41,087 nt of DNA from a virus (taxonomy: Duplodnaviria; Heunggongvirae; Uroviricota; Caudoviricetes). Positions 2,990-27,339 of this stretch are shown one piece after another. Below the pieces are notes generated by a model, which was not told the origin of the DNA, ran no database searches, and saw nothing but the letters and a program-made list of their open reading frames with translations. The stretch's first letter is position 1, and every line of letters starts with the position of its first letter. Position numbers and translations under genes: made by a program. Location of the stretch: the IMG/VR virus record IMGVR_UViG_3300031949_000413, positions 1-41,087 of that record. One strand, given 5' to 3'.

Positions 2990-3200
2990 CGGCAGTCGGT
3001 ACCATTATCCCGTGTGCCCGTGGAGTCCACACTAGATATGGCGTCGGTGACTCACGTAAACACCATATCCAGCACACGAATTGACGTTTCATCGACAGGC
3101 TGAGCCGCGCCATTGCTGGCAGCAACTGAACTCCCATCTCCACGTCCGTTTAGACTCTCGTCGTAATTCGGCGCGAGTTGGGCTAAATTGATAGCCGCAT
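2990..3200 (-). ncRNA. Putative TnpB omega-RNA / transposon right end (boundaries approximate)
   Basis: Nested stems overlapping the tnpB 3' end: 3032-3044 with 3060-3072, and 3011-3017 with 3072-3078, plus a small GTGG-ACT-CCAC hairpin. TnpB omegaRNAs are known to lie at this position. Confidence 0.5.
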
Positions 3201-4269
3201 TGATGTCTCGGTCTAGCCATGTCCCACACTGTGGGCATACCCAGTCCCGATCCGATAAAGTCAGACCATCGTTCTTGTATCTGCAGACATGACAGAGCTT
3301 GGACGACGGGTAGAAGCGTGGCGCTATGATTAAGTCGCCACCATACCACTTCATTTTGTACTCTAGTTGTCTGCGAATCTCATAGAATCCAACATCCGAT
3401 ATAGCACGTGCCAGATGGTGATTGGCGACCATGCCCGACACATTCAAGTCTTCAATCACAACCGTTTGCTTGGTTTTCGCAATACTGGTTGTAACCTTAT
3501 GAATGAAATCGGCTCGGATATTTGAGATTCTGTAGTGTAACTTGTTTAGTTTTCTGACGGCCACCTTTCTGCGGTTGCTACCGCGCTGTTTTCTCGATAG
3601 CGACTTGTTGAGTTTCCTGAGTTTAAGAGTGTATCGGTTTAGTGGCTTGGGAGCATCGAATGTGTCGCCATCACTCGTCACAATAGCACTTTTAATTCCC
3701 AAGTCCATCCCGACAGTTTCGATCTTGTCTATAGGCTGAATGTCTACTTCACACAGACATGAGATAAACCAGCGGCCACCACGAGTGCTAACTGTGGCAC
3801 TTGTTACACGTGAATTGACCGGGATATATCCATGTTCTTTCAGTTTCAAGACACCAAATTTCTGAATCTGGACAGTGTTATCAGTAATCTTGATAGTCCC
3901 GAAAGTGGTAAACGATCCAACGCCATCACGCTTCTTGCTGAACTTCGGGAATCCGACTTTCTTACCGCGTTTGCCCTGTTTGACACGTCTAAAGAAGTGC
4001 TTGTACGCCTGGTCTAGGTCACGGGCAGCGCCTTCTTCGGTTCGGCTTGATATTTCTGAGTACCATTCGAGGGTTGGCTTGACTTCAGCGCGGAACTTCT
4101 TAACTAGATCGTATGCTGATGGTTTCTTTAGGCCACTTTCCCGTGCGAAAATACACTGGGCCAGCATCCAGTTGTAGACGAATCGACGTGCGCCAGCATG
4201 TTTCCGGCACAGAATCTCCTGTTCCGGTACAAGGTCTAGCTCTACCTTGAATGCTTTCTTAACCATCAT
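3052..4269 (-). CDS. tnpB: RNA-guided endonuclease TnpB
   Basis: N-terminal KAFKVELD...HAGARRFVYNW, RuvC-I GMDLG, RuvC-II VIEDL, Zn ribbon CHVC/CPQC, RuvC-III DRDINAA. Start placed at the ATG at 4269; the ORF track extends to a GTG at 4284. Confidence 0.95.
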   Translation of the reverse strand: MMVKKAFKVELDLVPEQEILCRKHAGARRFVYNWMLAQCIFARESGLKKPSAYDLVKKFRAEVKPTLEWYSEISSRTEEGAARDLDQAYKHFFRRVKQGKRGKKVGFPKFSKKRDGVGSFTTFGTIKITDNTVQIQKFGVLKLKEHGYIPVNSRVTSATVSTRGGRWFISCLCEVDIQPIDKIETVGMDLGIKSAIVTSDGDTFDAPKPLNRYTLKLRKLNKSLSRKQRGSNRRKVAVRKLNKLHYRISNIRADFIHKVTTSIAKTKQTVVIEDLNVSGMVANHHLARAISDVGFYEIRRQLEYKMKWYGGDLIIAPRFYPSSKLCHVCRYKNDGLTLSDRDWVCPQCGTWLDRDINAAINLAQLAPNYDESLNGRGDGSSVAASNGAAQPVDETSIRVLDMVFT

Positions 4270-4279
4270 AAAATAAAGC

Positions 4280-4379
4280 CCCACACTTCTCGCGGTGTAG
4301 ATTGTCTAGGTCTGCGCCGTTTTGCTGAGAAATGTGGGACGGTACTACCACACATGAAAACAGCGCCAGAGCCTAGACA
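4280..4379 (-). ncRNA. Structured 5' leader / left end of the tnpB element with pseudoknot-compatible pairing
   Basis: About 21-bp stem (4357-4379 with 4303-4323). A loop segment at 4327-4338 pairs over 12 bp (one G-U) with 4280-4291. Confidence 0.5.
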
Positions 4380-4574: not shown

Positions 4575-5300
4575 CTAACCGAATAGCGACATCTGCTCGA
4601 CATCATGTGTCTCTGTGCCCGACAGCATAAATAGGCGCTCAATGCGATGATCCTTCTTACCACCTACACACATATCAGTCTTGACTAGCATTTCCTTGAC
4701 ACACACGAAGTCTTGTGGCGCAGAATATTCACTGACGACTACCGTATTGTTTATAGACCACTGTCGCATCACATTCCAAAACTCGTCTGAGTCAAAGTAT
4801 CCAACAGCGTCATAGCCAGTCATGCCGCTATAGGGCGGATCACAGTAAACCAATTCTCCATGTGGTCTGTAATCCCTATAGTCACCGCTACAGAATTTGA
4901 CGCCGACAATGCGACCAGCCTTGTACATAACAGAATTCTTAGCATTACTAACGTAATTGCGAACTTCGCTAGACGCCAATCCCCCAAACCACTTGCCAGC
5001 AAACGAACATCCAAATCCAGCGAATGCTGTTAATGGGTCATTGTCATCTCTGGTATTTTTGACACGCTCATATTCGTCTTCAGACATATCATGTGGCGGT
5101 ATCCATCCATTCTGTAGTGCCTTATACATTGTTATAAGAGCCACATTCGCATCGCTGGCAACACGTGGATTCTTCATGCCCTGTAGTACCCACGCACCAC
5201 CGACAAATGGCTCAAAATAGACCTGTCCGGGCTGGCGAACATGCCACAGAAAGTTGCATATCTGTCGCCACGTTCTCGCCTTGCCACCAAAGTAATGCAT
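4575..5300 (-). CDS. DNA adenine methyltransferase, Dam-like alpha class (orphan)
   Basis: YFGGK, YFEPFVGG and VYCDPPY motifs. Confidence 0.9.
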   Translation of the reverse strand: MHYFGGKARTWRQICNFLWHVRQPGQVYFEPFVGGAWVLQGMKNPRVASDANVALITMYKALQNGWIPPHDMSEDEYERVKNTRDDNDPLTAFAGFGCSFAGKWFGGLASSEVRNYVSNAKNSVMYKAGRIVGVKFCSGDYRDYRPHGELVYCDPPYSGMTGYDAVGYFDSDEFWNVMRQWSINNTVVVSEYSAPQDFVCVKEMLVKTDMCVGGKKDHRIERLFMLSGTETHDVEQMSLFG

Positions 5301-6063: not shown

Positions 6064-6264
6064 TTAGCCTCCCTGCTTCTTAATGGCACTCAAGATACTA
6101 ATGGCTATTTGGCGCATCCTGTAATCATAAGACTTATCTGGTTTGTATTTCCCACGCACATAGTCGCCAACATACCAACCAAACCCGTCTGATAACCAAT
6201 ACTCGTTATTCTCCAAAGCCTTAATAACGGCCCGTATTTCTTCTTCGGTAAACTCAGCCATCAA
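6064..6264 (-). CDS. Hypothetical protein
   Basis: 66-aa ORF coupled to the upstream gene (ATGA overlap). Confidence 0.6.
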   Translation of the reverse strand: MMAEFTEEEIRAVIKALENNEYWLSDGFGWYVGDYVRGKYKPDKSYDYRMRQIAISILSAIKKQGG

Positions 6265-7001
6265 TACCCTCCATACAGGCCATTGAGGTAATGTGCTATA
6301 CCCAAATGTTGTCTATCATACTGGTGGATCGCCGGTGCAAACTTTCCATCCACGTACAGCACGCCCTCATCAAACCGATACTGATACAAGCCTGTCGCCA
6401 CACCCAGTGTCCACACTGTATCACCATTAGGATGAATCTTACAGTGCAGTAAGTCACTTCTTACTGCGTAATTCAGCATGGCCTGATCCATCTTGTCGCC
6501 CTGCGTCATCACAAACTGACACCACTGTAGTAGTGATTCGCTATCACCCCAGATCGTTCCGGCACACAGGATCGGGTGTGGCAAACACCTGTCCAGTATA
6601 TCTTGACCATAATACTTTAGCAACCAGTCACCATTAGACTGCATTTCTTCGGCAACTGTTATGGCTTCTTCCGTAACGTGTAGTCCGTCTTTAAGGTAAT
6701 ACTTGATGTTGTCCTGAAAGACAGTATCTCGCGTATCTGCTATGAACACGCGCTCGTACTTTGGCAGTTCATCCACATACCAGTACCAGCGTCTAGCAAA
6801 GAACTGAACAGGGTGAGCCGCTACACCATACACCCATCTTACGCCCCACTCATCCATCTTCTTCTGTTCAGGCTCATCGAACCACTTGGTAAACAATACA
6901 ATATCGTCGTCATAGCCATTACTTCTAAGGCTAACGACAAAGTTACGTATATCAGACCATTTGTATCTTACAGCCGTTCCGAATACAGCAGTATTAGTCA
7001 C
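6261..7001 (-). CDS. Putative GT-A fold glycosyltransferase
   Basis: VFIADTRDTVFQ DxD-like motif, ILCAGTIWG and DQAMLNY, as seen in nucleotide-diphospho-sugar transferases. Confidence 0.6.
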   Translation of the reverse strand: MTNTAVFGTAVRYKWSDIRNFVVSLRSNGYDDDIVLFTKWFDEPEQKKMDEWGVRWVYGVAAHPVQFFARRWYWYVDELPKYERVFIADTRDTVFQDNIKYYLKDGLHVTEEAITVAEEMQSNGDWLLKYYGQDILDRCLPHPILCAGTIWGDSESLLQWCQFVMTQGDKMDQAMLNYAVRSDLLHCKIHPNGDTVWTLGVATGLYQYRFDEGVLYVDGKFAPAIHQYDRQHLGIAHYLNGLYGGY

Positions 7002-7029
7002 GCGACTATACTTTCCACATCGCTAGACT

Positions 7030-7197
7030 TTAGTCGGAAGAAGATACAATACTAGACTCATATTCCATCTGAAGATCAATGTCAACATCCACAAAGCTAT
7101 CGTTCCCAATAGCCTCCAGGTGTTGATGTTCTTCACCATCAGCAGCAATAACGATGAGCGAGATCGGATCACTTTGTAGATTAACTCTGCACTTCAT
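7030..7197 (-). CDS. Small acidic hypothetical protein, 55 aa
   Basis: AAGGA RBS before ATG 7197; this is the C-terminal part of track ORF 7030-7422. Confidence 0.5.
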   Translation of the reverse strand: MKCRVNLQSDPISLIVIAADGEEHQHLEAIGNDSFVDVDIDLQMEYESSIVSSSD

Positions 7198-7219
7198 TTG
7201 ATTTCCTTTCATGGGCAAT

Positions 7220-8290
7220 TTATGGCCCTCGCCACGTCTCCAAGCTCTGTCTAATGTTATCAGCCATCCATGGCTCGATCCTGCGCTGGTCATGACCGTC
7301 TTCAGTGGATAGCGGGCCACATACAAAACCTCGAATGCCTTCCGTCTTGGCCCGACCAGTAAAGTGTGGCAACCCTTCACAGTATTGCGAACCAACCCAC
7401 AACTGCGCCCCGTCTTGAACACGCTTCAGCGCCATTGCCTGCAAAGATGAACTCATATTGAAGTGTGCAAACCCAATCCAATTCACCTGTGTCGGCTTAA
7501 CCCGATCCATAATGATCTTCACAATATCTGGTATCAGGAAGTTGCCAGTTTGCAAACTGTCATGCCAACAGTGAGCCAGCATCATCCATGCCTCACTGCC
7601 ATAGTGTTCTACCAACATAGACTGTTGATGCACGACCTGTTCAACCAGCCTCTCTCTAAGCCACAGCCTTGTCTCTGGATGGCTATTCTCACGCCCAAAC
7701 ACAAAGACACCCGGCCTAACCTGTTCCCAACCCATGAAGTTAGCACCCTCGTTAGCATTAAAAGATGACAGCTTGCCATCAAAGCGGTATCTAGCCCACA
7801 CCTGAAATGCCTCGATAGCCTTTGGATCGAAGTAGCAGGGCGTATATGGCAACAGCGACTCACCGCCATGCGTACCACCTCTAATAACTTGTACAGGATA
7901 AGACCTGTAACGATCAATAGCCATTCTAATAAAGGCGTCGTGGTATGCTTGCGCTTCAGCGTGCCACGGCGAGAAGACACTGTACTCTGGTGAATATCCT
8001 CGGGGAATGCCCTCACCCGACCAGCAGTACCAATCGTCGGGCATACAGGCCGTTACACGGTTTGGTAACAACAACACCTTTAGGCCATTACTTATGCAAC
8101 TGTCCACTAATTCATCTGGCACAGACCAGTCGTAATGGCCCGGTGTCGTCTCAATGTGTATCCACTCTAAATTCCTGAGAACTGTCCTGACGCCCGCCGA
8201 TGCTATAGACACAAACCCATCACGAGTAATGGGCCGGTCTATGATGTCAAATATGATGATATGTTCGTCGTCTGCAATGAAGTTAGCCAT
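7220..8290 (-). CDS. Glycoside hydrolase-like TIM barrel (GH42/GH14-like), paralog A
   Basis: GVRTV..LEWIHIETTPGHYDWS..DELV...GLKV, THGGESLLPY, and AIEAFQVWARYRF..LSSFN. Confidence 0.65.
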   Translation of the reverse strand: MANFIADDEHIIIFDIIDRPITRDGFVSIASAGVRTVLRNLEWIHIETTPGHYDWSVPDELVDSCISNGLKVLLLPNRVTACMPDDWYCWSGEGIPRGYSPEYSVFSPWHAEAQAYHDAFIRMAIDRYRSYPVQVIRGGTHGGESLLPYTPCYFDPKAIEAFQVWARYRFDGKLSSFNANEGANFMGWEQVRPGVFVFGRENSHPETRLWLRERLVEQVVHQQSMLVEHYGSEAWMMLAHCWHDSLQTGNFLIPDIVKIIMDRVKPTQVNWIGFAHFNMSSSLQAMALKRVQDGAQLWVGSQYCEGLPHFTGRAKTEGIRGFVCGPLSTEDGHDQRRIEPWMADNIRQSLETWRGP

Positions 8291-8300
8291 GAAATTCTCT

Positions 8301-8414
8301 ATAGGTGGTAGGGCCGGGCGCTACTCCGGCTTCCCGGCTTATCCCTTGTGCGTTTAGGCCATGAGACCGGGGCCATGATACACGTGTCTGCTTTCCACGT
8401 CGCCCACCACCTAT
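8301..8414 (-). ncRNA. Candidate structured intergenic RNA
   Basis: Closing stem 8301-8314 with 8402-8414; internal hairpins ACGTG/CACGT and GCCGGG/CCCGGC. Confidence 0.45.
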
Positions 8415-8420
8415 CTAAAT

Positions 8421-9428
8421 CTACTTCTTAGGAATCCACTTGTCTACATTGTCTTTAGTGATCGTTAATGTACGCGGAAAGGCGCTGTCAGGAACAGGAA
8501 GGCCATGTTGCTTGTTATACAGCATGTGTAGGCCGATCCACTCTTCAGAAAAAGTATCTTGGCCCATCGTGCCAACAAACGTGCCATCCTTCACAGCCTG
8601 CAAAGTCGCAGGTGGCATATCGGTTGCCAAGAACAACGTCTTGAGTCCTGCCTGTACCTTTTCCTTCCACGGCTGTACCATCTGGCCCGCTGCACCCTCT
8701 GACCACCACAGCAATGTCAAGTCAGGGTGGGCTGATGTATACGAATCCAGCAATGTCGCCGCTGCTTGCACACTGCCATCGAACATACCAGACTCAACCA
8801 CCGTCACGTCTGGACACAGAACCTTGATCTGCTTATTAAACGCATCCATTCGCAACGAGACACCCGCGCCTGGATTTCCAATCGAGCCAACACTGCCCTT
8901 GCAATTGATGACCTTGGCGGCATACGTTGCCGCTTCGATCCCGAACCCGGCATTATCCGTGCCGACAAACCCAGAACGAGTCTTGAATGGGCTGTCAGTA
9001 TTGCCGATAATGATAGTGATGCCCTTCGCTTCGGCCTCTTTCACCAATGGTTCACCAGCAGTGAAATCCATTGCGTACCAGAAAACACCACAAGTGTTCG
9101 GGCTGGAAACCAATTGATCGAGTGTCTTGATCTGTTCAGCCAGATTCGGCTCTAGTGGCCCAACGAAATCAACCTTGACGCCAAGTTCCTTAGCCGCCGC
9201 GCTCCAACCCTCCAGACCAGGAACGTAGAACGGATTGGAATTGTTCGCCGCCAACCAAGAGTAGGTCGTGCATGACGGTAGCACAGTAGAGGCGACTACA
9301 GCCGGGGCTGAAGCTGTAGTCTTATCAGGGATAGACGCAGGCGTAGTCACTCGCCCAACAACCGCACCAACAGCGGCTCCTAACAATGTCACCAACGCAA
9401 CCAACAACTTAAACCTCTTCGTGGTCAT
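8421..9428 (-). CDS. Sugar ABC transporter substrate-binding protein (RbsB-like, type I)
   Basis: NPFY...G...AAKELGVKVDF, FVGTDNAGFG and TMGQDTF..G pattern; N-terminal hydrophobic anchor. Confidence 0.9.
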   Translation of the reverse strand: MTTKRFKLLVALVTLLGAAVGAVVGRVTTPASIPDKTTASAPAVVASTVLPSCTTYSWLAANNSNPFYVPGLEGWSAAAKELGVKVDFVGPLEPNLAEQIKTLDQLVSSPNTCGVFWYAMDFTAGEPLVKEAEAKGITIIIGNTDSPFKTRSGFVGTDNAGFGIEAATYAAKVINCKGSVGSIGNPGAGVSLRMDAFNKQIKVLCPDVTVVESGMFDGSVQAAATLLDSYTSAHPDLTLLWWSEGAAGQMVQPWKEKVQAGLKTLFLATDMPPATLQAVKDGTFVGTMGQDTFSEEWIGLHMLYNKQHGLPVPDSAFPRTLTITKDNVDKWIPKK

Positions 9429-10378
9429 TTCTTCTCTCCTAGATTGTGTGCCATGCGTGGCACATGAATTTTGTTACTGGTCGCATCCAGTATGAGCGCC
9501 AGTAGTAATACCCCGCCGATTAACAACTTCTGCCAATATGGGCTAACGCCTAGAATCGTTGCGGAATTCGTGAGCATATTCATCAGCAATAGACCCAATA
9601 GCCCCGATAGAACATTGCCTCGACCGCCACTCAGGGCACATCCGCCAATGACAGCAGCAGCAATAGCCCGCATAGTCATTCCGTCAACCGCATTCGGGCT
9701 TCCAGAATTGAGTCTCGATGCCAATACTACCCCAATAAAGGCTGATAGTAAGCCCATCATGACATACAGCTTGATCCCAATGCGCTCTACTTGCACTCCG
9801 AACAATCGCCCCGCTTCTGGATTCCCGCCCATGATATGGATATGCCTGCCAAAGCGTGTGAATGACAGAACAACCGCCATCACACCCAGAATGATAACTG
9901 CATACCAGACATAGATACGAATGTCTAGTATTCTAGCCTGTCCAATCACCTGAAAGGCATCTGGGAAACCGAAAGGACTAATCGCTCGTGTCAGGCCATA
10001 GGCAATTCCTGTACTCATCCACCATGTTCCGAGTGTTGCAATCAGTGGGTTGATCCGCAGTCGCATGACGAGCAGGCCATTTATCCAGCCCGCCATACCC
10101 CCGACTGCTAGTGCTACTATAACAGCTAACACCCACGGGACACCGGACACTATCAACTTTCCGCAAACCACACCCGACATTGCTACAACACCATCTACTG
10201 ATAAGTCAAACAGTCGCCCAACTAGCAGAAACGTCAGCCCTGCCATCGCAATGCTCTCTAAGGCCATATTGGAGAACATCGAACTTAGATTAGACCCTGA
10301 CACAAAATTGGGCGACAGCACCGCCATAAGCGCCATGAACGCCACGTTGACAGCCAGCAACCCAGCAATCCTACGCAT
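9425..10378 (-). CDS. Sugar ABC transporter permease (RbsC-like)
   Basis: Multi-TM; FDLSV, INPLIATLG, RFGRHIHIMGGNPEAGRLFG, IAAAVIGG. Confidence 0.93.
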   Translation of the reverse strand: MRRIAGLLAVNVAFMALMAVLSPNFVSGSNLSSMFSNMALESIAMAGLTFLLVGRLFDLSVDGVVAMSGVVCGKLIVSGVPWVLAVIVALAVGGMAGWINGLLVMRLRINPLIATLGTWWMSTGIAYGLTRAISPFGFPDAFQVIGQARILDIRIYVWYAVIILGVMAVVLSFTRFGRHIHIMGGNPEAGRLFGVQVERIGIKLYVMMGLLSAFIGVVLASRLNSGSPNAVDGMTMRAIAAAVIGGCALSGGRGNVLSGLLGLLLMNMLTNSATILGVSPYWQKLLIGGVLLLALILDATSNKIHVPRMAHNLGEKK

Positions 10379-11042
10379 CGAACACCTTGCCGTGGCGCAT
10401 AACAACCACCCTGTCAGCTATACGTCCAACTTCATCCTTACGATGGTTGATCAGCACTACCGACACACCATACTTCTTCAGGCTTCTGATAACTTCCAGC
10501 ACCTTGTCAGCGGACTCTGGACTTAGGCTGGCAGTAGGCTCGTCCATAATCACCAGCCTGGCTTGGAAGGCCATTGACCGTCCAATGGCAACCGCCTGTC
10601 GTTGCCCACCCGATAGAGTCTGTACCAATTGACGCACGTCACTAATATCAATAGCAAGACGCTCGATCAGTAGCCTCGTTTGAACGTCCATCTGCTTGCG
10701 AGCCAGAAAGTTAAATGGCCCATAAGACAGCTCCCGCCCCATGAACACGTTGCCGGTAACATCCAGGTTGTCAGCCAATGCCAAGTCCTGATACACCATC
10801 TCTATTCCCAGCCGTCTCGCATCCTCTGGGCTATCAATCCGACAGGGTTGGCCGTCCATCAGGATATGTCCACCGTCAGCCGTGTATGCCCCGCTCAACA
10901 CCTTCATCAATGTTGACTTGCCCGCCGCGTTGTCGCCTACCAACCCCAGTATCTCGTCGGACTCAATAGACAAGTCCACACCGTCGAGCGCCTTGACTGC
11001 TCCGAACGTCTTGTAGATGTCGAGCATCTCGACTAGACTCAT
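10371..11042 (-). CDS. Sugar ABC transporter ATP-binding protein, single NBD
   Basis: Walker A GDNAAGKST, signature LSGGQ, Walker B IMDEP, H-loop INH. Confidence 0.93.
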   Translation of the reverse strand: MSLVEMLDIYKTFGAVKALDGVDLSIESDEILGLVGDNAAGKSTLMKVLSGAYTADGGHILMDGQPCRIDSPEDARRLGIEMVYQDLALADNLDVTGNVFMGRELSYGPFNFLARKQMDVQTRLLIERLAIDISDVRQLVQTLSGGQRQAVAIGRSMAFQARLVIMDEPTASLSPESADKVLEVIRSLKKYGVSVVLINHRKDEVGRIADRVVVMRHGKVFDA

Positions 11043-11728
11043 AGCCTCGGCTCACTCTTGAGATTCTGAAACGTCCAGCCATTAGGCGTGTTCCGCAAAC
11101 ATGCTATACCAACCATATCCAGCACTTCTTGTGGCGTATAGCCATCCCGCCTTAAATCGAATACCGTCTGAGCGCCGCCCGTCTTGGACATATCGCCATC
11201 CTTCCATCGTAAACGTGGCAGGTAAATGTGCTTTGGCCTCGGCAGGCCGAACCGTTCGCAGTAGTATTGATACAGACTATACTCGCTCAACAAGTCTATG
11301 CCACGAATCAGCAGATTGACACCTTCCATCCAGTCCATGACAACCTTCTCGGCAGTCAACATCGGCGTCAGCGGATAGAGCAATATGTCATTTCCAATCA
11401 GTTCTGGGATAACCTCTGGCGGGTTCTTGTCCAACAAGACATCGGCACGCTTAGACAAATATTCATGTACTTCATCAATGATGTCACTCTGCTTGATCCA
11501 CTTATCTGGTTCAAAGCCTAGCCATTCCAAGTCGTCGCGTTGTCCCTTAAGGATCAGTTCGGTCTTGGCGCGACCTAGCGTGACAAGGCGAATCGGATGC
11601 GAATCATCCCACCGCACAATGAACTTTCCACCCGTCTCGTGTGCAACCGACTCATTGATAAGTCCCGTATAAATATGCCCCAGATGGAGTGGGCCATTAA
11701 CCGAGGTGTTTAGTCTGGTGCTATACAT
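11039..11728 (-). CDS. Minimal glutamyl-tRNA synthetase-like (GluQ-like) HIGH-superfamily enzyme
   Basis: NGPLHLGH (HIGH), FIVRWDD, WLG..PD....QS, D...GV..LIRG.DL, MSKT (KMSKS-like), LRRDGYTP. No anticodon-binding domain. Confidence 0.75.
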   Translation of the reverse strand: MYSTRLNTSVNGPLHLGHIYTGLINESVAHETGGKFIVRWDDSHPIRLVTLGRAKTELILKGQRDDLEWLGFEPDKWIKQSDIIDEVHEYLSKRADVLLDKNPPEVIPELIGNDILLYPLTPMLTAEKVVMDWMEGVNLLIRGIDLLSEYSLYQYYCERFGLPRPKHIYLPRLRWKDGDMSKTGGAQTVFDLRRDGYTPQEVLDMVGIACLRNTPNGWTFQNLKSEPRL

Positions 11729-12653
11729 TGCGCGCCGCTCTCCACTTTGCCATAGACTCTGAAAAGGCGTTGAACATCCAATCTTCCATCTGGCGATACT
11801 TAGTCATGAAATGGATCGGGCCACACAGGAATCCGCGAAAGCCCTCCGCAATAGCCCTGTCGGTGTTTACCAGTAATCCCCTGGCATGTTCCGATCCACC
11901 AAACATTGATAACCCCAGCCGTTGCATATCAGCCAAGTTCTTGTCTTCACCTTTCACATCATTCCGAAACTGGGTGTAGGATATGGCATAGTGTTTGTAG
12001 TCTGGAAACTTGTCACGTGTCGCCTGATAGAGCATTTCAGCATATTCTGTACCGGCTGTTCCTTGATAGTCGAACGCATGATGGAAGCACGTCCACAGCT
12101 CATGACTGTCATGAGCCGAGTAAAAGATAGCCTGTTCTTCGATCAGTATCTTAAACATTGTCTCTATGTATGACCCGTCCAGGCGATACGGATACTTTGA
12201 GTCGTGAGGGAACATCGCCTCCGCGCCATGTGTAGTAGCCCGGAAACACATCACGTCCGGCGCAGACACCTTCTCACAGAACCGAACAATGAAAGCCAGA
12301 TGATATGCCCATCCTTCCGCCAACCACGGCGACAAGACACGCTCTCGAAACTTCCCAACATAGGTCTTACCGTCGAGCATCTTCATGTACCACTCGTCTG
12401 GAAAATACTTCGGGGGTTTGTCATAGGTTGCCCACAGGCACTTCATACCCGCCTGTCGAGTCATCTCAATGGCGCTCTCGGTCTCGCCCCACTCGTAGTA
12501 GCCCATACTTGTTTCAATGCTCCCCCAATATGGGTAACGCACAATTGTCTGAATGCCAATATCGCGCAGACGCTTCAAGTCATCCAGCGTGAACTTGCCG
12601 CCGTACTGGTCTTCCATCAGCAGGATATATTCGTCGTCTTGAATGAACTTCAT
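11721..12653 (-). CDS. Glycoside hydrolase-like TIM barrel (GH42/GH14-like), paralog B
   Basis: GIQTIV.YPYWGSIETSMGYYEWG, THGAEAMFP and GGSEHARGL; clearly similar to 7220-8290. Confidence 0.65.
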   Translation of the reverse strand: MKFIQDDEYILLMEDQYGGKFTLDDLKRLRDIGIQTIVRYPYWGSIETSMGYYEWGETESAIEMTRQAGMKCLWATYDKPPKYFPDEWYMKMLDGKTYVGKFRERVLSPWLAEGWAYHLAFIVRFCEKVSAPDVMCFRATTHGAEAMFPHDSKYPYRLDGSYIETMFKILIEEQAIFYSAHDSHELWTCFHHAFDYQGTAGTEYAEMLYQATRDKFPDYKHYAISYTQFRNDVKGEDKNLADMQRLGLSMFGGSEHARGLLVNTDRAIAEGFRGFLCGPIHFMTKYRQMEDWMFNAFSESMAKWRAARNV

Positions 12654-13014: not shown

Positions 13015-13677
13015 CTACTTCTTCTTGAGAATTATCCACTTCCACACCTCGCTGATACCTGCTTCAAGTCCAATTCCGAGTACATCCCACTTAACGGTAT
13101 CAATTCCTTCTGTCAGTTCCTCAATGGTGTAGCCACGCACCATAATTGTATTGTCATCAGGCCAGTCCGCCACAGTCGGCGTAATGTGAATCTGTGTCAG
13201 AAACACACCACCCGGGACTAGGATATGCCATGCTTCTTCCAAATACTTCCAGAATGAAACACGGGGCATGTGCTGGTACACTAAATGGCTTACTACAGCA
13301 TCGAAGAATGGGGGTAGGCCAACAAGAGTTGGAGTGCAAACGTAGGAAATGTTAGGACGACTTGCATATTCAAGCGCCAAGTCAATCATATTGTCCGATA
13401 CATCAGTCGCCCATACCGATGTCACCAAGTCAGCCCAGTGCATAGCACATCGGCCAACACCTGTTCCCACCTCTAGCAGTCTCCATTCTGTCTTGACGGC
13501 GATACCAACCCCAGCCAGCGCATCACACATATCTTCAACGTGTTTCTTGCCGGAAGAGTAGAACAGCTCACGACTGCCTTCATACCTATCCAAGATCGCG
13601 CTCCAAGCACCTTTCTCAGTCTTGGCTCTCTCGTCCCAGTCTGCCTTCATCTTGTCCTGTATGGTCACTTTACCCAA
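13015..13677 (-). CDS. Class I SAM-dependent methyltransferase (not a DNA MTase type)
   Basis: LLEVGTGVGR, ATDVSDNMI, FDAVVSHLVYQH and LVPGG motifs. Confidence 0.85.
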   Translation of the reverse strand: MGKVTIQDKMKADWDERAKTEKGAWSAILDRYEGSRELFYSSGKKHVEDMCDALAGVGIAVKTEWRLLEVGTGVGRCAMHWADLVTSVWATDVSDNMIDLALEYASRPNISYVCTPTLVGLPPFFDAVVSHLVYQHMPRVSFWKYLEEAWHILVPGGVFLTQIHITPTVADWPDDNTIMVRGYTIEELTEGIDTVKWDVLGIGLEAGISEVWKWIILKKK

Positions 13678-14471
13678 ACTCCATCCTGATATGTGCGAAT
13701 GTCGGCATCGAATGGAACATTTCGCGGCTCGGTTTCAGGCCACGTCAATTTCCATGTAACACCCTCTGGTATTGGCTTGGCATGAACACCACTCCATACA
13801 CCTTCGTTTAAGAAAGCGTGTCCGCGTTGTAAATAGAGCCTGCTCCGAAATAACATACGATCATGAACAATGTGCCTGTCCCATTGCTTCCTAAAGCCCG
13901 TATAGGCCATGTTTTCATGCCATGCACCTTCCCACTTCACTACACCCGGCCTGTGTATTCTAGCATGAGCCAGCCAATCGCTGTACTCTGGATAGCAATG
14001 TTGCTCATCTCCGACCAGTGTCAGCCATTTAGGACACACATTGGTAACATCTGATGGCAAACCTTCAAGGTATGCCCTAATATCATTGGCAAACTCTAAT
14101 GAACACACTTCATCTGAATCTATCCACACGATCCAATCAGGCTGTTCTTGATCCTGTGACATGCGTTCCAGTATCCAATTGCGCTGGTCGGCTGGACTGA
14201 CAAACGGATGTTCAAAAAGCTTCAGCCACACATCATTCCAAGAACCGCCCAAATACTCGCCGGTTCTGTGATATTTAGTGATCATATTGCGTCTGTCTAA
14301 TAACCACCCGCCAAGTGGCACTGTATGTCTAGGATGATAGCAAATCGTACCACTACCCAGGCCACCATCTACTAGGTATATCTTGTCAGAGAAATATGCC
14401 AACGATGTAAGCGCATCGGGAAGAACTTGCACTTCGTCGGGCTGGCTGATGATGTAGCTGTGAATTATCAT
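13665..14471 (-). CDS. GT2-like glycosyltransferase
   Basis: YLVDGG, QRNWIL, WIVWIDSDE, WEGAWHE. Confidence 0.65.
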   Translation of the reverse strand: MIIHSYIISQPDEVQVLPDALTSLAYFSDKIYLVDGGLGSGTICYHPRHTVPLGGWLLDRRNMITKYHRTGEYLGGSWNDVWLKLFEHPFVSPADQRNWILERMSQDQEQPDWIVWIDSDEVCSLEFANDIRAYLEGLPSDVTNVCPKWLTLVGDEQHCYPEYSDWLAHARIHRPGVVKWEGAWHENMAYTGFRKQWDRHIVHDRMLFRSRLYLQRGHAFLNEGVWSGVHAKPIPEGVTWKLTWPETEPRNVPFDADIRTYQDGVWVK

Positions 14472-19244: not shown

Positions 19245-19511
19245 CTAGTGAGATATGCTGTCTCTCCACTCATTAACCGAAAAACAATAACCTTCATGCT
19301 TTATCCTTTTGAACATTACCCATAGATTATATTCGGCAAAGTCATCATCACATAGCGAGTGGAATATAGGCCCATCAGAGAAGAATGCCTGTCCACATTC
19401 GGCACACACATACTCCGTTTGCGATTTGGATATTCTTGCCCAAGTTGTTCCACTACCGCGCATCAAGGCACTAATCAATTCATCAGGTGATACTTCTCTA
19501 ATAATATTCAT
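19245..19511 (-). CDS. Zn-finger hypothetical protein
   Basis: ATG 19511 overlaps the upstream stop; CAEC...HSLC. Confidence 0.55.
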   Translation of the reverse strand: MNIIREVSPDELISALMRGSGTTWARISKSQTEYVCAECGQAFFSDGPIFHSLCDDDFAEYNLWVMFKRIKHEGYCFSVNEWRDSISH

Positions 19512-21268
19512 TTTTGCCACTTTCTCCTGAACAGCTCTCTGTTCCGCTCGACCTTCTCTTCGGTGTCTGGCGATCTGGACTTCGTAGCCCCCTCTAAATG
19601 TCTTAGGCAACTTGCTGGCTGATAGACAACCCGATAACCTTTGGCCTTAGCATCCATACACAAGTCCAAGTCCTCATAATTTAGCCCATCAAGCAACTCG
19701 TCATCGAAATGGAATAACTCACGCCGACATAGCAATGCCGCACCTGTAATAAAGTCTGTCTCTCTCACTTCCGATGCCGCCTGACAATCCAGTTGCATGT
19801 ATAGATAATGATACCCAATGTCTTCTCTATTCCAGTCTATAAGACCGCCCGCGTGCTGTAGCCTGCCATCAGCCGATAGAAGCTTAGGCCCGACAACACC
19901 AACACTCTGATCGTTCAGAACTAGCAACAACATCTCAAGCCAACTCTTGCTGTTGGCTATCACATCGTCATTCAGGGCCATTATCAATGGTGTCTGTACA
20001 AAATCACTGGCGAACTTCATTGCACCACCATAACCCAGGTTCTTACCAGGATAGACAAATGCAACGCTCGGATATTTCTTCTCTAGTGCCAAGTCGTGTT
20101 CCATATCTACATCACCGTTATTGACAACCTTAACGAGCATGTTCGGCGCAGTGGAATGCAATGACTCTAAACATCTCTCTAGCATGGCACAATTGTTGAA
20201 CGTTGGGATAATGGCCGTCACATCCGACTGCTGATACTTTAATGAAGGCAATGTATTTGGCAATGGCTCTATCAGTTGCCCGTCCAGCATATTCTGAACA
20301 CGACGCTTGAACGCTCCGAAGTCCTGCCATGCTCGTGCCCACATCGTCCCGTATTGGCTGAATGCCGCCCACAAATGCCAGTTGTGCGTCAGTTCGATCG
20401 TTATCTGCCCTAACTGGCGCATGTCATCGAAGAGCAATCCAGTCTTATGATCCAACACCACTTCCGGCATTCCCCCCGAACGATATACCAATGGCACACA
20501 GCCCGACGCCGACGCTTCTAAGGGGGAAAGACCCAGATGTTCTTGTGCCGATGAAACTGTCGGCAATGAGATGCCTGTTGCGTGCCAATATAATGAAGCC
20601 CGTCCGTACAATTCGCGCATCTCCTGTTCGTTTGGGTCTACAATAAAGTCTATCGGATAACCCGCCGACATTTCCATCAGGCCATCCAAATAACGATTCT
20701 GCCCCTGCTCAACCGTTCCAGCCAATACCAGTCGCCAACCCGGTAAGTCACCGCGTATCATCCGCATCAATTGAATGAATTGGTTATGAGCCTTGTCTGA
20801 CCATTCGTTTGGCTCTGCAAACCGACTGACATGCAGAATGATGTTCTCTTTGCGAGACGTGTGGTAGTCATCTTCAATGGGAATATAAAGATGTTGCGCG
20901 TCTCTATTCCAACGCGCTTTGACATGGGATGCTGTGTATTGACTATTAGTGTATATCTCAATGCCTTCAGGTGGAGCAGAATACATCGGAAAGAAGACGT
21001 GCATCAGTGTCCGCTTAGCTAACGGTTGCGGGTGTCCGAAATGATCTATTGAAAGAAAAAATTCATAGCCAGACTCTACCCCTGGCCTATACCACCTTAT
21101 CGGTATTCCCTGAAAATATGGCATGATAAGTGGATGAATGGCCGAGCGAACGTACAACGTCACTTCATCTGGGCGGAGTTCCCGCAACGCTCTGACATGC
21201 CAATACACTGCCTTAAACCCGCCACCTTTGGCAAGTAGATGGCTACCTGCATTAACGCCTATATTCAT
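19508..21268 (-). CDS. Fused GT4 (GT-B) + GT2 (GT-A) glycosyltransferase
   Basis: N-half ILHVSRF, EHLGLSPLEA.ASGCVP; C-half AIIPTFN, ALNDD, VVGPKL, YEDLDLC. Confidence 0.88.
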   Translation of the reverse strand: MNIGVNAGSHLLAKGGGFKAVYWHVRALRELRPDEVTLYVRSAIHPLIMPYFQGIPIRWYRPGVESGYEFFLSIDHFGHPQPLAKRTLMHVFFPMYSAPPEGIEIYTNSQYTASHVKARWNRDAQHLYIPIEDDYHTSRKENIILHVSRFAEPNEWSDKAHNQFIQLMRMIRGDLPGWRLVLAGTVEQGQNRYLDGLMEMSAGYPIDFIVDPNEQEMRELYGRASLYWHATGISLPTVSSAQEHLGLSPLEASASGCVPLVYRSGGMPEVVLDHKTGLLFDDMRQLGQITIELTHNWHLWAAFSQYGTMWARAWQDFGAFKRRVQNMLDGQLIEPLPNTLPSLKYQQSDVTAIIPTFNNCAMLERCLESLHSTAPNMLVKVVNNGDVDMEHDLALEKKYPSVAFVYPGKNLGYGGAMKFASDFVQTPLIMALNDDVIANSKSWLEMLLLVLNDQSVGVVGPKLLSADGRLQHAGGLIDWNREDIGYHYLYMQLDCQAASEVRETDFITGAALLCRRELFHFDDELLDGLNYEDLDLCMDAKAKGYRVVYQPASCLRHLEGATKSRSPDTEEKVERNRELFRRKWQK

Positions 21269-21274
21269 AACCTA

Positions 21275-22066
21275 TCACCTTGTTTTGCAGTAAATGTCGA
21301 TGTCGTGCCGAGGTTGTCCGTGTTTCAAGAACAGCGTCGCCAAGTTCCGTTGAATGTTGTCCTGCGTAAACCACCCGCCACTCTGGGGCTGACTGGCATG
21401 TTCGTAGTGCCACACAATAGCCTTCGGTTCGTATATCACATCCAGACCCAACTTCTTAACCGATAGGCATAGTGAAACATCGTCAAACACACCCATGCCG
21501 AATTTGGTGTCGAATCCGCCCACCTTGTCCCATACTTCGCGCCTCACCATCATGCACGCACCTGTCACGGCATTAACCGAGCGCCATGTATTGACGGCCT
21601 TATTCTTGGGCTGCGCCAATGCCATGAAGTGCATCGGGAAGCCATCTACCTCAAAAAATATTCCGGCGTGCTGTACTCGACCGCGCCGATAGGGATCGGG
21701 GTGGTTCTGTGGATACAGTAATAACGCTCCACATACCGCTGCACCAGCATCTAAGTTATTAGCCATTGCTTCGATAGCCCCTGGCGTGGCCTCGGTATCG
21801 CTATTAAGAATGAGAACGTAGGACGCTTCGGTCTTTTTCACACCTCGATTGGTACTCGAAATGAATCCCTGCGGAATGGGATTGCGATACACAGTCACAC
21901 CGTCTAAATTCTTCAATGCTGTCTGTGTCGGCTCGTCCGAGCCATCATCACAGATTAGGATAGAGCCTAAACGTTTCTGATCCCTTAGACTCTGGACACA
22001 CCGAATAGCCATTAGTGGCTGCCCGTGAACGGGAATTACCACATCAACATTGGGCCTTGTCGCCAT
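21275..22066 (-). CDS. GT2 family glycosyltransferase
   Basis: VVIPVH, ICDDGS, ILNSDT, AVTGACMMVR, DDVSLC; AAGGAG RBS before ATG 22066. Confidence 0.9.
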   Translation of the reverse strand: MATRPNVDVVIPVHGQPLMAIRCVQSLRDQKRLGSILICDDGSDEPTQTALKNLDGVTVYRNPIPQGFISSTNRGVKKTEASYVLILNSDTEATPGAIEAMANNLDAGAAVCGALLLYPQNHPDPYRRGRVQHAGIFFEVDGFPMHFMALAQPKNKAVNTWRSVNAVTGACMMVRREVWDKVGGFDTKFGMGVFDDVSLCLSVKKLGLDVIYEPKAIVWHYEHASQPQSGGWFTQDNIQRNLATLFLKHGQPRHDIDIYCKTR

Positions 22067-22250
22067 TACTACTCTCCTTGTCCATTTCCTGTTGCGCAAT
22101 AGTCTCTACCAGCATCGGCCAGCCATTCGGTCTCCAATGGCCCTTCACTTCACCACTAGCCACAACATGCAAATTCACCTTCACCTCATATCTGTAATTT
22201 CCGATAAGGTCTGTGCCAGTACCATCATTTTGAATATTGAGTGTCAACAT
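22044..22250 (-). CDS. Hypothetical protein, possibly leaderless
   Basis: ATG lies 6 nt after the -10-like element of the motif at 22257-22284. Confidence 0.55.
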   Translation of the reverse strand: MLTLNIQNDGTGTDLIGNYRYEVKVNLHVVASGEVKGHWRPNGWPMLVETIAQQEMDKESSNGDKAQC

Positions 22251-22900: not shown

Positions 22901-23977
22901 TCAGATTCCCAGTGCAACTTCGTACATTCTTCCAGCATCACGATAAAGCGACTCTGCCCATGTATGCCCGTCAGTAGACAGATTGGCACGCAATTTATTG
23001 TCGGAAATCATAGCCTCTATCGTTCTATCCCATTCAGCCGACTTATTATTGACCAGTAATCCGCCGACACCCTCTTTGAACGATCCTAAATTAGATGCCA
23101 CCCACGGAATACCGGCCATGCCTGCCTCTATCTGCTTCAGAAAGCTTCTTCTAAGATCGTATTGTGACGCGATGGGACAAATGTACAAGTCCCAAGACTT
23201 CACTATTTGCGGCCAGGCCTCAAAGGTCGTCCAGAAGTGCATGGAATACCTACCCTGTAGGCCCGCCTTGTCTAACAGAATGGCAATGCGTGGGTCTTTA
23301 TTCTGTAGGTGAATATAGACACGACTGTTGTTCCGACAAACAGTCGCCAGCGCCGGAACAATACCACTATCCCTGAATGACTCCCAGTGCGCGGTGCTTC
23401 CGCCCCATCCGATAATGAAATTGTTATCAGGCGGTCGTTTCCCAAACTTATCCCACAGTTCTGGCGGCGATACGTTTGGGATATATTGGATCGTTGGGCA
23501 AAACTGCCGATAGTCATCAGCCAATAAACGCGAGGGGACTATAGCAGTATCACACATGCGTAGCGTCTGCCTGAATTCAGTCAGGATAGCGCCGACCTTC
23601 TTCGTACCGTCTGACTTTGTGCCAAACTGAAAACTCTTGCCGCCCCTCCACGATAGGGCCGACGCACCGCCTGAAGGAGGCATTAAATGGTAGGCATCAT
23701 CGAACAGGCCCACAACCTTCTTGCCCTGCGCGTGCCACTTGTCAATGTGAGGCCACAACTCGCTCAACAACAATCTTTCGAGTAAGATAACGTCAGCCGA
23801 GTCTACAATCTCTTGGAATTCGGGGTCATACTTCTCTGAGGATAATTCGTAGATGTGGGTAATCACACACCGATGTCCGTTCCTACCATCAAGAATTTTG
23901 GCAGGAATCAAACATCGGTAGTATGAGGTATTCAGTTCGTCGCGCCGATCCGCCACTGCCCACAAAATCGTTGCCAC
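22901..23977 (-). CDS. GT4-like (GT-B) glycosyltransferase
   Basis: YYRC..P, DVILLERL, FDDAYH, IGWGGS..H, SFLKQIEAG.AGIPWVAS. Confidence 0.75.
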   Translation of the reverse strand: MATILWAVADRRDELNTSYYRCLIPAKILDGRNGHRCVITHIYELSSEKYDPEFQEIVDSADVILLERLLLSELWPHIDKWHAQGKKVVGLFDDAYHLMPPSGGASALSWRGGKSFQFGTKSDGTKKVGAILTEFRQTLRMCDTAIVPSRLLADDYRQFCPTIQYIPNVSPPELWDKFGKRPPDNNFIIGWGGSTAHWESFRDSGIVPALATVCRNNSRVYIHLQNKDPRIAILLDKAGLQGRYSMHFWTTFEAWPQIVKSWDLYICPIASQYDLRRSFLKQIEAGMAGIPWVASNLGSFKEGVGGLLVNNKSAEWDRTIEAMISDNKLRANLSTDGHTWAESLYRDAGRMYEVALGI

Positions 23978-23997: not shown

Positions 23998-24207
23998 TTA
24001 CTTGCTGATACTATATGTCGCCTTTGTCACCCACCCATGTAACGGGCATAGCCATGTCTCTCCAACATTGACGTGTGCGCCACACTCGCAGATCGGCAAC
24101 ATGGCTAAATGGTCATCAATGCGCTGTAGCATATCAACCATTTTAGCCATCGTGCGCTGTATGTCAGCCAGAGCATTTACCACATCACGCAGTTCGCCAA
24201 ACATCAC
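23998..24207 (-). CDS. Small Cys-rich hypothetical protein
   Basis: CECG...CPLHG; coupled to the portal stop. Confidence 0.55.
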   Translation of the reverse strand: MMFGELRDVVNALADIQRTMAKMVDMLQRIDDHLAMLPICECGAHVNVGETWLCPLHGWVTKATYSISK

Positions 24208-25943: not shown

Positions 25944-25974
25944 TATTGACTCCGAACTACACCAATATACAAAG

Positions 25975-26003
25975 AGTATAAGCCCTATGCGCCAATATGT
26001 CAA
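25975..26003 (-). promoter_or_regulatory. sigma70-type promoter for the portal/glycosylation block
   Basis: TTGACA (26003-25998), N17, TATACT (25980-25975). Confidence 0.75.
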
Positions 26004-26018
26004 CTTCGGGTTTCCAGC

Positions 26019-26034
26019 AGTCCGCACGGATACT
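26019..26034 (+). promoter_or_regulatory. Operator box copy in the divergent intergenic region
   Basis: AGTCC-GCACGG-ATACT. Confidence 0.5.
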
Positions 26035-27177: not shown

Positions 27178-27339
27178 ATGCGGCTTGTCAGAATTGGGCT
27201 GTGGCTGCACTACACCTACAATATCTACCGATACGAAAATGACCAGTCGGTTAGACTTGCCGAGAATGTCGTATATGACCATGTGACTGAAGTTATTGAA
27301 AAATTGAAAGAGTCCGAAAAAGACAATCAATATGATTAG
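27178..27339 (+). CDS. 53-aa hypothetical protein, paralog of the previous ORF (not in the track)
   Basis: YNIYRYEND...[12 protein letters not shown]; stop overlaps the recA start. Confidence 0.6.

Follow-up and report, generated by a model that had tools for sequence, protein, structure and literature searches.

The DNA considered here (the window, 41,087 nucleotides in its full length) forms the first 41 kb of IMG/VR record IMGVR_UViG_3300031949_000413, a phage of the class Caudoviricetes. The source record is a single contig of 124,186 bp that IMG/VR classes as a complete genome with direct terminal repeats, and the phage is uncultured and originates from a soil metagenome. One DNA run, probably the source sample, contains the stretch, and no RNA run is listed. 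Between positions 6261 and 12653 the window carries a cassette that encodes a small protein resembling glutamyl-tRNA synthetase (GluRS), two glycoside hydrolase-like (GH-like) barrel proteins named GH-A and GH-B, a sugar importer of the ATP-binding cassette (ABC) type and a possible glycosyltransferase (GT). The GluRS-like gene recurs beside a GH-like gene in many uncultured phages, and the cassette may build and tailor a glycan, with the GluRS-like enzyme acting as a ligase independent of tRNA. The features of the cassette are given below (aa, amino acids; ORF, open reading frame; NBD, nucleotide-binding domain).

11721-12653, minus strand: GH-B, 310 aa, predicted single-domain (beta/alpha)8 barrel, no Pfam family
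11039-11728, minus strand: GluRS-like gene, 229 aa, predicted stripped GluRS-type adenylating ligase, Rossmann core only
10371-11042, minus strand: ABC ATPase, 223 aa, a single NBD equivalent to the N-terminal half of CUT2 ATPases
9425-10378 from ATG, minus strand: CUT2-type permease (BPD_transp_2, AraH/RbsC-like), with a TTG start at 10405 in the ORF list
8421-9428, minus strand: extracytoplasmic sugar-binding protein (Peripla_BP_4), 335 aa
8291-8420, minus strand: structured intercistronic RNA element, the 130-bp gap after the binding-protein gene
7220-8290, minus strand: GH-A, paralog of GH-B, 356 aa
7030-7212, minus strand: possible acidic ORF, 60 aa, open frame only
6261-7001, minus strand: possible GT-A-fold glycosyltransferase (lead only), 246 aa

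Along GH-B, the GluRS-like gene, the ATPase, the permease and the binding protein, consecutive genes overlap by 8, 4, 8 and 4 bp, which confirms the overlaps of 4-8 bp given in the initial annotation of this DNA; the 8-bp overlap of ATPase and permease needs the ATG at 10378. Beyond the gap, the same annotation had placed a second hydrolase, a small ORF and a GT-like gene. The first of these, GH-A, stands, whereas the 60-aa ORF is an open frame with no homolog in the related loci, and the GT-like gene is a lead only. Its 246-aa product has no Pfam or PHROG match, contains a DTRD motif, and has Atlas language-model neighbors in viral clusters, some of them with GT8, GT6 or GT_PLOD families. All genes of the block lie on the minus strand, which had been called the portal strand, but no portal was identified in the window to bear this name out; a 607-aa ORF at 24204-26027 has no Pfam or PHROG match. 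The GC content is slightly higher at 8-11 kb (0.51-0.53) than in the flanks (0.45-0.49), and a scan for promoters and terminators gave counts at or below chance.

The gap after the binding-protein gene is exactly 130 bp long and structured, in agreement with the prediction. Its predicted fold is multibranched, with a 12-bp closing helix and a minimum free energy of -51.5 kcal/mol (z = -2.84), and none of 200 shuffled sequences folded as well. The element has no family match in Rfam and is unique, with no repeat in the genome or in related loci. A comparison of nine relatives with a spacer after the binding-protein gene revealed a strong hairpin of 8-16 bp directly 3' of the binding-protein stop codon in seven of them (z = -2.2 to -6.3). 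The hairpin sequences are not conserved between relatives, and most are without a U-tract. Long perfect hairpins directly after this stop codon occur at L042:6604-6628, L001:13298-13328, L012:15972-16010, and L015:6061-6131 (L numbers denote the loci compared here). A 3' stabilizer or attenuator arrangement is familiar from bacterial ABC operons, and the gap is probably an intercistronic element of this kind that sets the level of the binding-protein cistron.

The GluRS-like protein and its neighbors in the cassette

The 229-aa protein has the catalytic domain of GluRS and GlnRS, that is, a Rossmann fold with HIGH and KMSKS motifs. Pfam family PF00749 matches residues 4-92 (6e-19; 68.5 bits against a cut-off of 23.4) and the NCBIfam GluQRS models also match residues 129-189, so that only the two Rossmann halves are recognized. 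The HIGH motif is present as HLGH at residues 15-18 and the KMSKS motif as DMSKT at residues 179-183. Among 53 aligned members of the family, H15, G17, H18, and K182 are invariant or nearly so, and K182, the second lysine of KMSKS, is invariant. The retained motifs agree with the initial annotation, which had predicted an enzyme capable of forming an adenylate. An AlphaFold2 model of the protein reached a pLDDT of 93. Its top fold matches are bacterial GluRS structures (E about 1e-13 to 1e-14), and GluQRS (4a91) ranked only 36th, below many GluRS structures.

The family profile aligns with residues 1-58 and 185-270 of the GluRS of Thermus thermophilus (1j09). The glutamate-binding residues of this enzyme are, we assume, R5, E41, Y187, N191, R205, and W209. 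R5 is kept in the phage family, R205 corresponds to the invariant R142, and the position of E41, the anchor of the alpha-amine, is occupied by D or E in 51 of 53 members. Y187 is replaced by Leu, W209 by an invariant Leu, and N191 by Lys or Arg in 52 members. The pocket appears enlarged and more cationic than that of GluRS (Y187L, W209L, and N191K, with both arginines kept). GluRS has an insertion of ~90 aa between the Rossmann halves, which we take to be its acceptor-end binding domain; the linker at this place measures 27-36 aa in all 53 members. The sequence stops at residue 229 with no anticodon domain, and neither longer members nor fusions of the family were found. With motifs and pocket kept, and the insertion and anticodon domain gone, the machinery that forms an adenylate with an anionic alpha-amino acid would be intact and the parts that hold tRNA lost. 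Overall, the protein is neither GluRS nor GluQRS and may be a tRNA-independent ligase for a Glu-like residue.

Two known enzymes were considered as identities for this protein and rejected. Canonical GluRS was ruled out by the short linker, the absent anticodon domain, and scores of 43-64 bits with the gltX models, whose cut-offs are 290-516. GluQRS, the glutamyl-queuosine tRNA-Asp synthetase also known as YadB, was ruled out by the length of ~230 aa, the short linker, and a best model score (NF004315) of 71 bits against a cut-off of 250. It resembles the phage family as a paralog of the GluRS catalytic domain with no anticodon-binding domain, and it gives the best NCBIfam match. However, GluQRS is about 300 aa long (298 residues in 1nzj and 290 in 4a91) and keeps an insertion domain that holds the tRNA acceptor, and the phage family is linked to glycan genes, not to tRNA. 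GluQRS activates glutamate and esterifies the sugar-like diol of queuosine, and it is the sole GluRS-derived paralog listed in a 2022 review (PMC9437257). The phage proteins would represent a second such paralog family and the most reduced one, a bare Rossmann core from which the acceptor-binding insertion has gone.

With 25% identity (E = 5e-30), GH-A and GH-B can be regarded as true paralogs. GH-B has no Pfam or NCBIfam match. GH-A has a sub-threshold match to Pfam GH42 (18.9 bits against 21; 1e-3) and a weak GH35 match. A profile of 20 relatives matched the N-terminal barrel motif of GH42 chains with E = 6.7e-8. An exhaustive search with hidden Markov models (HMM) placed at least 165 clusters at 50% identity in the GH-like family with E <= 1e-30, and the complete clusters among the matches listed are single-domain proteins of about 280-390 aa. 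The AlphaFold2 model of GH-B is a compact (beta/alpha)8 barrel with a pLDDT of 96. Alignment of this model with VIA-align gave Z = 21 for GH14 beta-amylases, Z = 19-21 for GH42 beta-galactosidases and an alpha-L-arabinopyranosidase, and Z = 19.8 for 7vkw, a structure deposited as a beta-1,2-glucosyltransferase. E145, the glutamate that follows strand beta4 according to the secondary structure of the model, is kept in 77 of 80 relatives, and the beta7 position, a Glu in GH-B, is a Gln in GH-A. The phage proteins share with GH42 beta-galactosidases and alpha-L-arabinopyranosidases, and with GH14 beta-amylases, the (beta/alpha)8 barrel and the near-invariant glutamate after beta4. They differ from GH42 in being single domains of 310-360 aa, in scoring below the Pfam cut-off, and in the variable residue at the nucleophile position after beta7. 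GH42 enzymes have trimerization and C-terminal domains in addition to the barrel. GH42 proper was ruled out, since the Pfam score is absent or below the gathering cut-off and the proteins are single domains and not of the multi-domain trimer architecture. By its sequence, GH-B is a distant relative of GH42, GH14, and GH35 in a family of its own. The GH-like proteins may act in hydrolysis, transglycosylation, or binding. A predicted complex of GH-B with the GluRS-like protein scored 0.00, which is evidence neither way.

The importer belongs to the CUT2 type of sugar transporters. The permease matches PF02653 (6e-35), AraH (3.6e-59), and phrog_27181 (2.5e-40), and the binding protein matches PF13407 (7e-34); with 118 and 121 bits, binding protein and permease lie above the cut-offs. 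The ATPase has all expected motifs (Walker A, Q-loop, LSGGQ, Walker B, and H-loop). Its match to the XylG, RbsA, and AraG profiles, which are about 500 positions long, is confined to positions 1-221, so the two fused NBDs of CUT2 ATPases are represented by a single NBD of 223 aa. The initial annotation had described a complete CUT2 importer; this stood for the binding protein, the permease, and the intact ATPase motifs, but not for the ATPase as a whole, which is half the CUT2 size. The ATPases of relatives measure 221-260 aa. Known CUT2 systems such as RbsABC, XylFGH, AraFGH, and the CbpA system of Clostridium thermocellum are alike in combining Peripla_BP_4, BPD_transp_2, and a XylG/RbsA/AraG-like ATPase. 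The phage importer differs from them in its single NBD (221-260 aa against two fused NBDs of ~500 aa), in being phage-encoded, and in having no nearby ATPase in eight loci. The importer is thus a minimal CUT2 variant by its sequence, with one NBD, one permease, and one binding protein. Permease and NBD are presumed to form homodimers, and the importer looks functional, with its ATPase motifs intact and export signals on the binding proteins.

The binding protein of the window has an N-terminal hydrophobic anchor and a linker rich in Pro, Thr, and Ala, and six of nine phage homologs have a lipobox cysteine and a similar linker. Lipoprotein-type binding proteins are usual in monoderm bacteria, which hints at a monoderm host. 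The nearest solved chain is CbpA (7x0g, 4e-26), which we take to be a glucose binder, followed by chains deposited as sugar- or arabinose-binding proteins. CbpA is the subject of work on the uptake of cellodextrins and glucose by C. thermocellum (PMC9601137). The best NCBIfam match of the binding protein is weak and points to a rhizopine (inosamine) solute-binding protein (3e-8). The view that complete sugar importers are not standard phage cargo needs revision to the extent that ABC systems are not unknown in phages. PHROGs contains families for the ATPase and for the CUT2-type permease, and a 2026 preprint has described complete ABC systems beside PspA in huge phages.

Recurrence of the module

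Locus contexts were obtained by exact protein look-up and an alignment-based scan of IMG/VR, and a census of 33 loci was made with local HMM and phmmer searches. The alignment-based scan found the module in 25 loci; a search of IMG/VR with a single protein as query gave no match, as did a pattern scan of GTDB genomes with the GluRS-like alignment, while the alignments of the GH-like family diverge too much for scans of this type. The GluRS-like family comprises 62 homolog clusters with 36-77% identity, all of ~230 aa and nearly all metagenomic. Its gene is the most constant member of the module, and although the gene order takes four forms, a GH-like gene adjoins it in 27 of the 33 loci. Of the other six, five are cut by a contig end within ~1.3 kb, and only L031 is truly without an adjoining GH-like gene. 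Twenty loci contain a small GT-A-like gene, and 14 contain a GT4 gene. Permease and/or binding protein are present in 21 of the 33 loci and the ATPase in nine; at least six loci with adequate flanks contain the core and no importer. Eight loci (L019, L023-L026, L030, L032, and L033) have the permease, mostly with the binding protein, and no ATPase within several kb; such phages may rely on an ATPase of the host. The core of the module thus consists of the GluRS-like gene, the GH-like TIM barrel, and small glycosyltransferases, and the importer is accessory.

The module recurs with shuffled gene order in contigs from IMG/VR, Logan, ENA, and JGI that belong to unrelated phage types. Since the genes stay together through at least four different arrangements, selection appears to act on the co-occurrence of the genes. 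The carriers include relatives of the 124-kb phage with the same upstream methyltransferase and GT genes (L008, L041, and L042), an 85-kb contig (L001), phages with Mu-like heads (L004 and L007), and siphoviruses with an SPP1-type portal (L002, L009, L010, and L012), in which the module lies between the scaffold/capsid and the head-completion genes. In phages of the L002, L004, and L007 types the module is likewise flanked by capsid/scaffold genes and head-completion genes, and glycosyltransferases are encoded with structural genes in L002, L004, L007, and about ten related loci. One 340-kb IMG/VR contig contains two separate pairs of GluRS-like and GH-like genes with no ABC genes (L017 and L027). 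A protein with the Pfam Tad6 family is encoded a few kb upstream of the module of the 85-kb contig (L001:6723-7739). The initial annotation had proposed an undescribed phage system with a conserved neighborhood of GluRS-like and GH genes; the recurrence in unrelated phage types bears this out, and the system is apparently undescribed.

The families are scarce outside metagenomes. Among 50,697 records of deposited phages, neither the GluRS-like nor the GH-like family was found, and the block had no DNA match. The GluRS-like protein gave two weak partial matches in deposited phages (33-37% identity over no more than 45% of the query) that lie outside the 230-aa family, and GH-B had no protein match in deposited phage genomes. 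The only cellular copy is in a metagenome-assembled genome (MAG) of Anaerolineae (L006/L034, on a 5.2-Mb scaffold), the only match among 401 Chloroflexota genomes searched. In this copy (L006:9722-12223), the C-terminal half of the GluRS-like protein is all that can be recognized, and it is followed by a GH-like gene and a weakly GT-A-like gene. Envelope-glycan genes (YfhO, PMT_2, GT2, and GH94) lie nearby, and the Pfam matches in the flanks include no phage structural families.

Glycan context of the source phage and its relatives

The context of the module is glycan synthesis throughout. In the source phage, the genes upstream of the cassette in the same orientation include a DUF551 gene, a methyltransferase dependent on S-adenosylmethionine (SAM), and at least five glycosyltransferase genes, and the complete genome has at least six glycosyltransferase-like genes. 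The upstream genes that bear on glycan synthesis are listed below.

13015-13677, minus strand: SAM-dependent methyltransferase (Methyltransf_11 at 3e-12), syntenic with the module in close relatives
13665-14471, minus strand: 268-aa protein, weakly GT2-like, syntenic in L008, where there are two copies
19508-21268, minus strand: GT4+GT2 fusion, an upstream glycosyltransferase
21275-22099, minus strand: GT-A, distantly homologous to the small GT encoded immediately before the GluRS-like gene in other phages
22901-23977, minus strand: GT, an upstream glycosyltransferase

The order of the SAM methyltransferase seen in the window was also found in L008 and L041. Related loci show similar surroundings. 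Directly upstream of the GluRS-like gene, L014 (5283-10020) has a DegT-type sugar aminotransferase, a MobA-like NTP-transferase (weak match), and a GT17-like gene, and it also has GT2 and GT4 genes around the module. These genes suggest an amino sugar as a possible acceptor. A rhamnosyl-O-methyltransferase-like gene lies near the module of L033. Beyond the window, the source phage encodes a 1,442-aa Ser-repeat protein (118146-122474 of the genome), and its major head protein and endolysin are encoded on the minus strand at 79-105 kb. Of 24 related loci, 23 are free of tRNA genes, and the exception, L017, carries two of them some 10 kb away from its module.

Several other features of the window were noted. 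The contig starts (1-278) with 3.8 copies of a 73-bp unit, 99% identical to one another, beside the reported terminal repeats. A 410-aa protein encoded at 3052-4284 on the minus strand matches the phage 'transposase' family phrog_506 with E = 1.8e-114, and three DNA methyltransferase genes flank it (457-1326, 1323-2753, and 4575-5300). A RecA/UvsX-like recombinase gene at 27332-28357 on the plus strand (phrog_97, E = 2.4e-82) marks the change to plus-strand genes.

Possible roles of the cassette and their meaning

The explanation we favor, with a probability of roughly 40%, is that the cassette builds and tailors a glycan and that its ligase adds a Glu-like residue to a sugar with no use of tRNA. 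The working parts would be a stripped GluRS-type ligase, one or two GH42/GH14-like TIM barrels, and small GT-A or GT-B enzymes, often with a sugar methyltransferase. The importer would raise the supply of monosaccharide, and host enzymes would activate the sugar, as the phage has none of the usual activating enzymes. Glycosyltransferases would then assemble the glycan on an acceptor of the phage or of the envelope, in the source phage probably a protein of the virion, for which the 1,442-aa Ser-repeat protein is a candidate, and the TIM-barrel enzymes would trim or transglycosylate it. With ATP, the GluRS-like enzyme would convert an acidic, Glu-like alpha-amino acid into an aminoacyl-adenylate, from which the residue would pass to a hydroxyl or amino group of the sugar. 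The stem-loop 3' of the binding-protein gene would stabilize or attenuate the transcript at this point. The analysis itself establishes gene content, conservation, folds, motifs, and genomic context, and from these we infer the substrate, the acceptor, the order of these steps, and the virion as target; virion proteins may be the target, as in several phages the module sits inside head gene blocks. A linear pathway that imports a sugar, trims it, acylates it, and feeds it to glycosyltransferases, as outlined in the initial annotation, is not supported; the importer is optional. For a rewiring of host carbon uptake, also suggested there, nothing examined speaks.

Known systems offer partial parallels. 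The transfer proposed here would follow the logic of GluQRS, which acts on the diol of queuosine, and of MshC. MshC is an aminoacyl-tRNA synthetase (aaRS) paralog of class I that makes a sugar-amino acid conjugate: it forms an aminoacyl-adenylate and then joins the amino acid to an amino sugar (GlcN-inositol) independently of tRNA (PMC2922099; PMC9437257). Its pathway also has a GT4 enzyme; MshC is, however, of CysRS descent, full-size, and cellular (actinobacterial), so that the likeness is an analogy of mechanism only. Phage virion glycosylation cassettes are alike in that soluble phage glycosyltransferases are encoded beside capsid genes, and the source phage also has a Ser-repeat protein. 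Glycosyltransferases of mycobacteriophages and cassettes of this type were reportedly described by Freeman and colleagues in 2023. To our knowledge, no importer, aaRS-like ligase, or GH-like barrel has been reported from them.

Several observations weigh against the proposal of a glycan with an added Glu-like residue. E255 is the glutamate after beta7, where the nucleophile of the enzyme clan GH-A usually stands; only 52 of 80 relatives have kept it, which makes ordinary retaining hydrolysis doubtful for part of the GH-like family. The assignment of the amino acid rests on residue homology to GluRS, and with three pocket residues changed (Y187L, N191K, and W209L) the substrate could be another anion. 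The module of the source phage does not adjoin structural genes, and no convincing Ser/Thr-rich acceptor was found near the module in other loci. In addition, NTP_transferase, epimerase, GHMP kinase, and DegT were not found in the source genome; sugar activation must thus come from the host or another route, and the link from imported sugar to glycosyltransferases depends on the host.

A broader proposal is that the GluRS core of ~230 aa works with its obligate GH42-like partner as an enzyme pair peculiar to phages, whose chemistry would be new, either a tRNA-independent aminoacyl:sugar ligase for charged amino acids on virion or envelope glycans or a route of sugar activation free of nucleotide sugars, fed in many phages by their own minimal single-NBD importer. 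We consider this possible, though on balance unlikely. The parts come from known superfamilies; the stripped GluRS family, its strict pairing with an uncharacterized GH42-like family, and the single-NBD CUT2 importer are undescribed in the literature searched or the family libraries scanned.

The cassette could instead make a small soluble glycoside-amino acid conjugate by a logic like that of mycothiol, and not decorate a polymer. A glycosyltransferase would join a sugar to an imported or host aglycone (e.g., a cyclitol or sugar), the TIM barrel would process the product, the ligase would add an amino acid, and the conjugate would serve takeover, protection, or signaling. Mycothiol synthesis likewise combines a GT4 enzyme with a ligase that is an aaRS paralog (MshA and MshC; PMC2922099), the core occurs in loci with no acceptor proteins nearby, and the binding protein has the weak rhizopine match. 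Against this, ordinary sugar binders are its nearest relatives of solved structure, the glycosyltransferases (up to five or six per locus) and methyltransferases suggest an oligosaccharide, and placement inside head gene blocks is hard to explain for a soluble metabolite. We regard such a product as improbable.

An auxiliary module for carbon and energy, in which the importer and cytoplasmic GH42-like enzymes take up and cleave a sugar or short glycoside to fuel infection and the GluRS-like gene is a passenger of unrelated role, appears a little less credible again. An importer that looks functional from its motifs, next to a cytoplasmic GH42-type enzyme, resembles some galactoside-utilization loci of bacteria. 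However, the supposed passenger is the most constant gene and overlaps its neighbors translationally, whereas the importer is missing from at least six loci with the core and the ATPase from eight with the permease. CUT2 binding proteins of this type take monosaccharides, for which no hydrolase is needed, and the neighboring glycosyltransferases are anabolic.

Activation of sugars without nucleotide sugars has also been considered, with the GluRS-like enzyme, as a HUP-fold protein, adenylating an anionic sugar (uronic acid, ulosonic acid, or sugar phosphate) and the GH-like barrels acting as transglycosylases. This would fit the gene content of the phage (at least six GT-like genes, but neither NTP_transferase nor epimerase nor GHMP kinase), a pocket larger and more cationic than that of GluRS, and a barrel that resembles 7vkw and has a variable beta7 Glu. 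The acidic anchor for an alpha-amine in 51 of 53 members nevertheless favors an amino acid, and nucleotide sugars can come from host enzymes. We know of no aaRS-type enzyme that activates a sugar, and this route is a long shot.

Modification of nucleic acids, by GluQRS-like glutamylation and glycosylation of a queuosine-type tRNA base or by hypermodification of phage DNA, is very improbable. GluQRS is the only described GluRS paralog (PMC9437257), and genes for DNA methyltransferases occur close to the module both in the source phage and on one relative contig. Against this, no TGT/DpdA, QueC, or pyrimidine hydroxymethylase of the thymidylate-synthase type was found in the complete source genome, which weakens the idea; the lack of TGT and QueC also speaks against glutamylation of queuosine-34 in tRNA-Asp, the reaction of GluQRS. 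The acceptor-binding insertion is missing, almost all related loci are free of tRNA genes, the GluQRS models score far under their cut-off (71 bits against 250), and the barrel resembles glycosidases, with TGT not among the fold matches listed. Finally, a chimeric assembly or a recent capture of decaying host DNA, to which the raised GC at 8-11 kb might point, deserves almost no credence, as conserved synteny contradicts it: independent assemblies (L008, L041, and L042) repeat the genes, their order, and the methyltransferase and GT genes upstream of them, the module recurs in the 25 IMG/VR loci, every reading frame and motif is intact, and the family is found in one of 401 Chloroflexota genomes and in no deposited-phage record.

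The GluRS-like family offers a natural test case for the core chemistry of class I synthetases in a setting free of tRNA, and the single-NBD CUT2 system could serve studies of structure and mechanism as a minimal importer. As the parts are small, soluble, or easily truncated, these hypotheses are directly testable in vitro. If the enzyme pair does perform new chemistry, aaRS-derived enzymes would gain a new class, and the auxiliary pathways of phages a new type. Some small siphoviruses spend 6-8 kb of their head-gene block on a sugar importer and glycan enzymes, which suggests a strong selective role of glycans in uncultured phages of soil and sediment.

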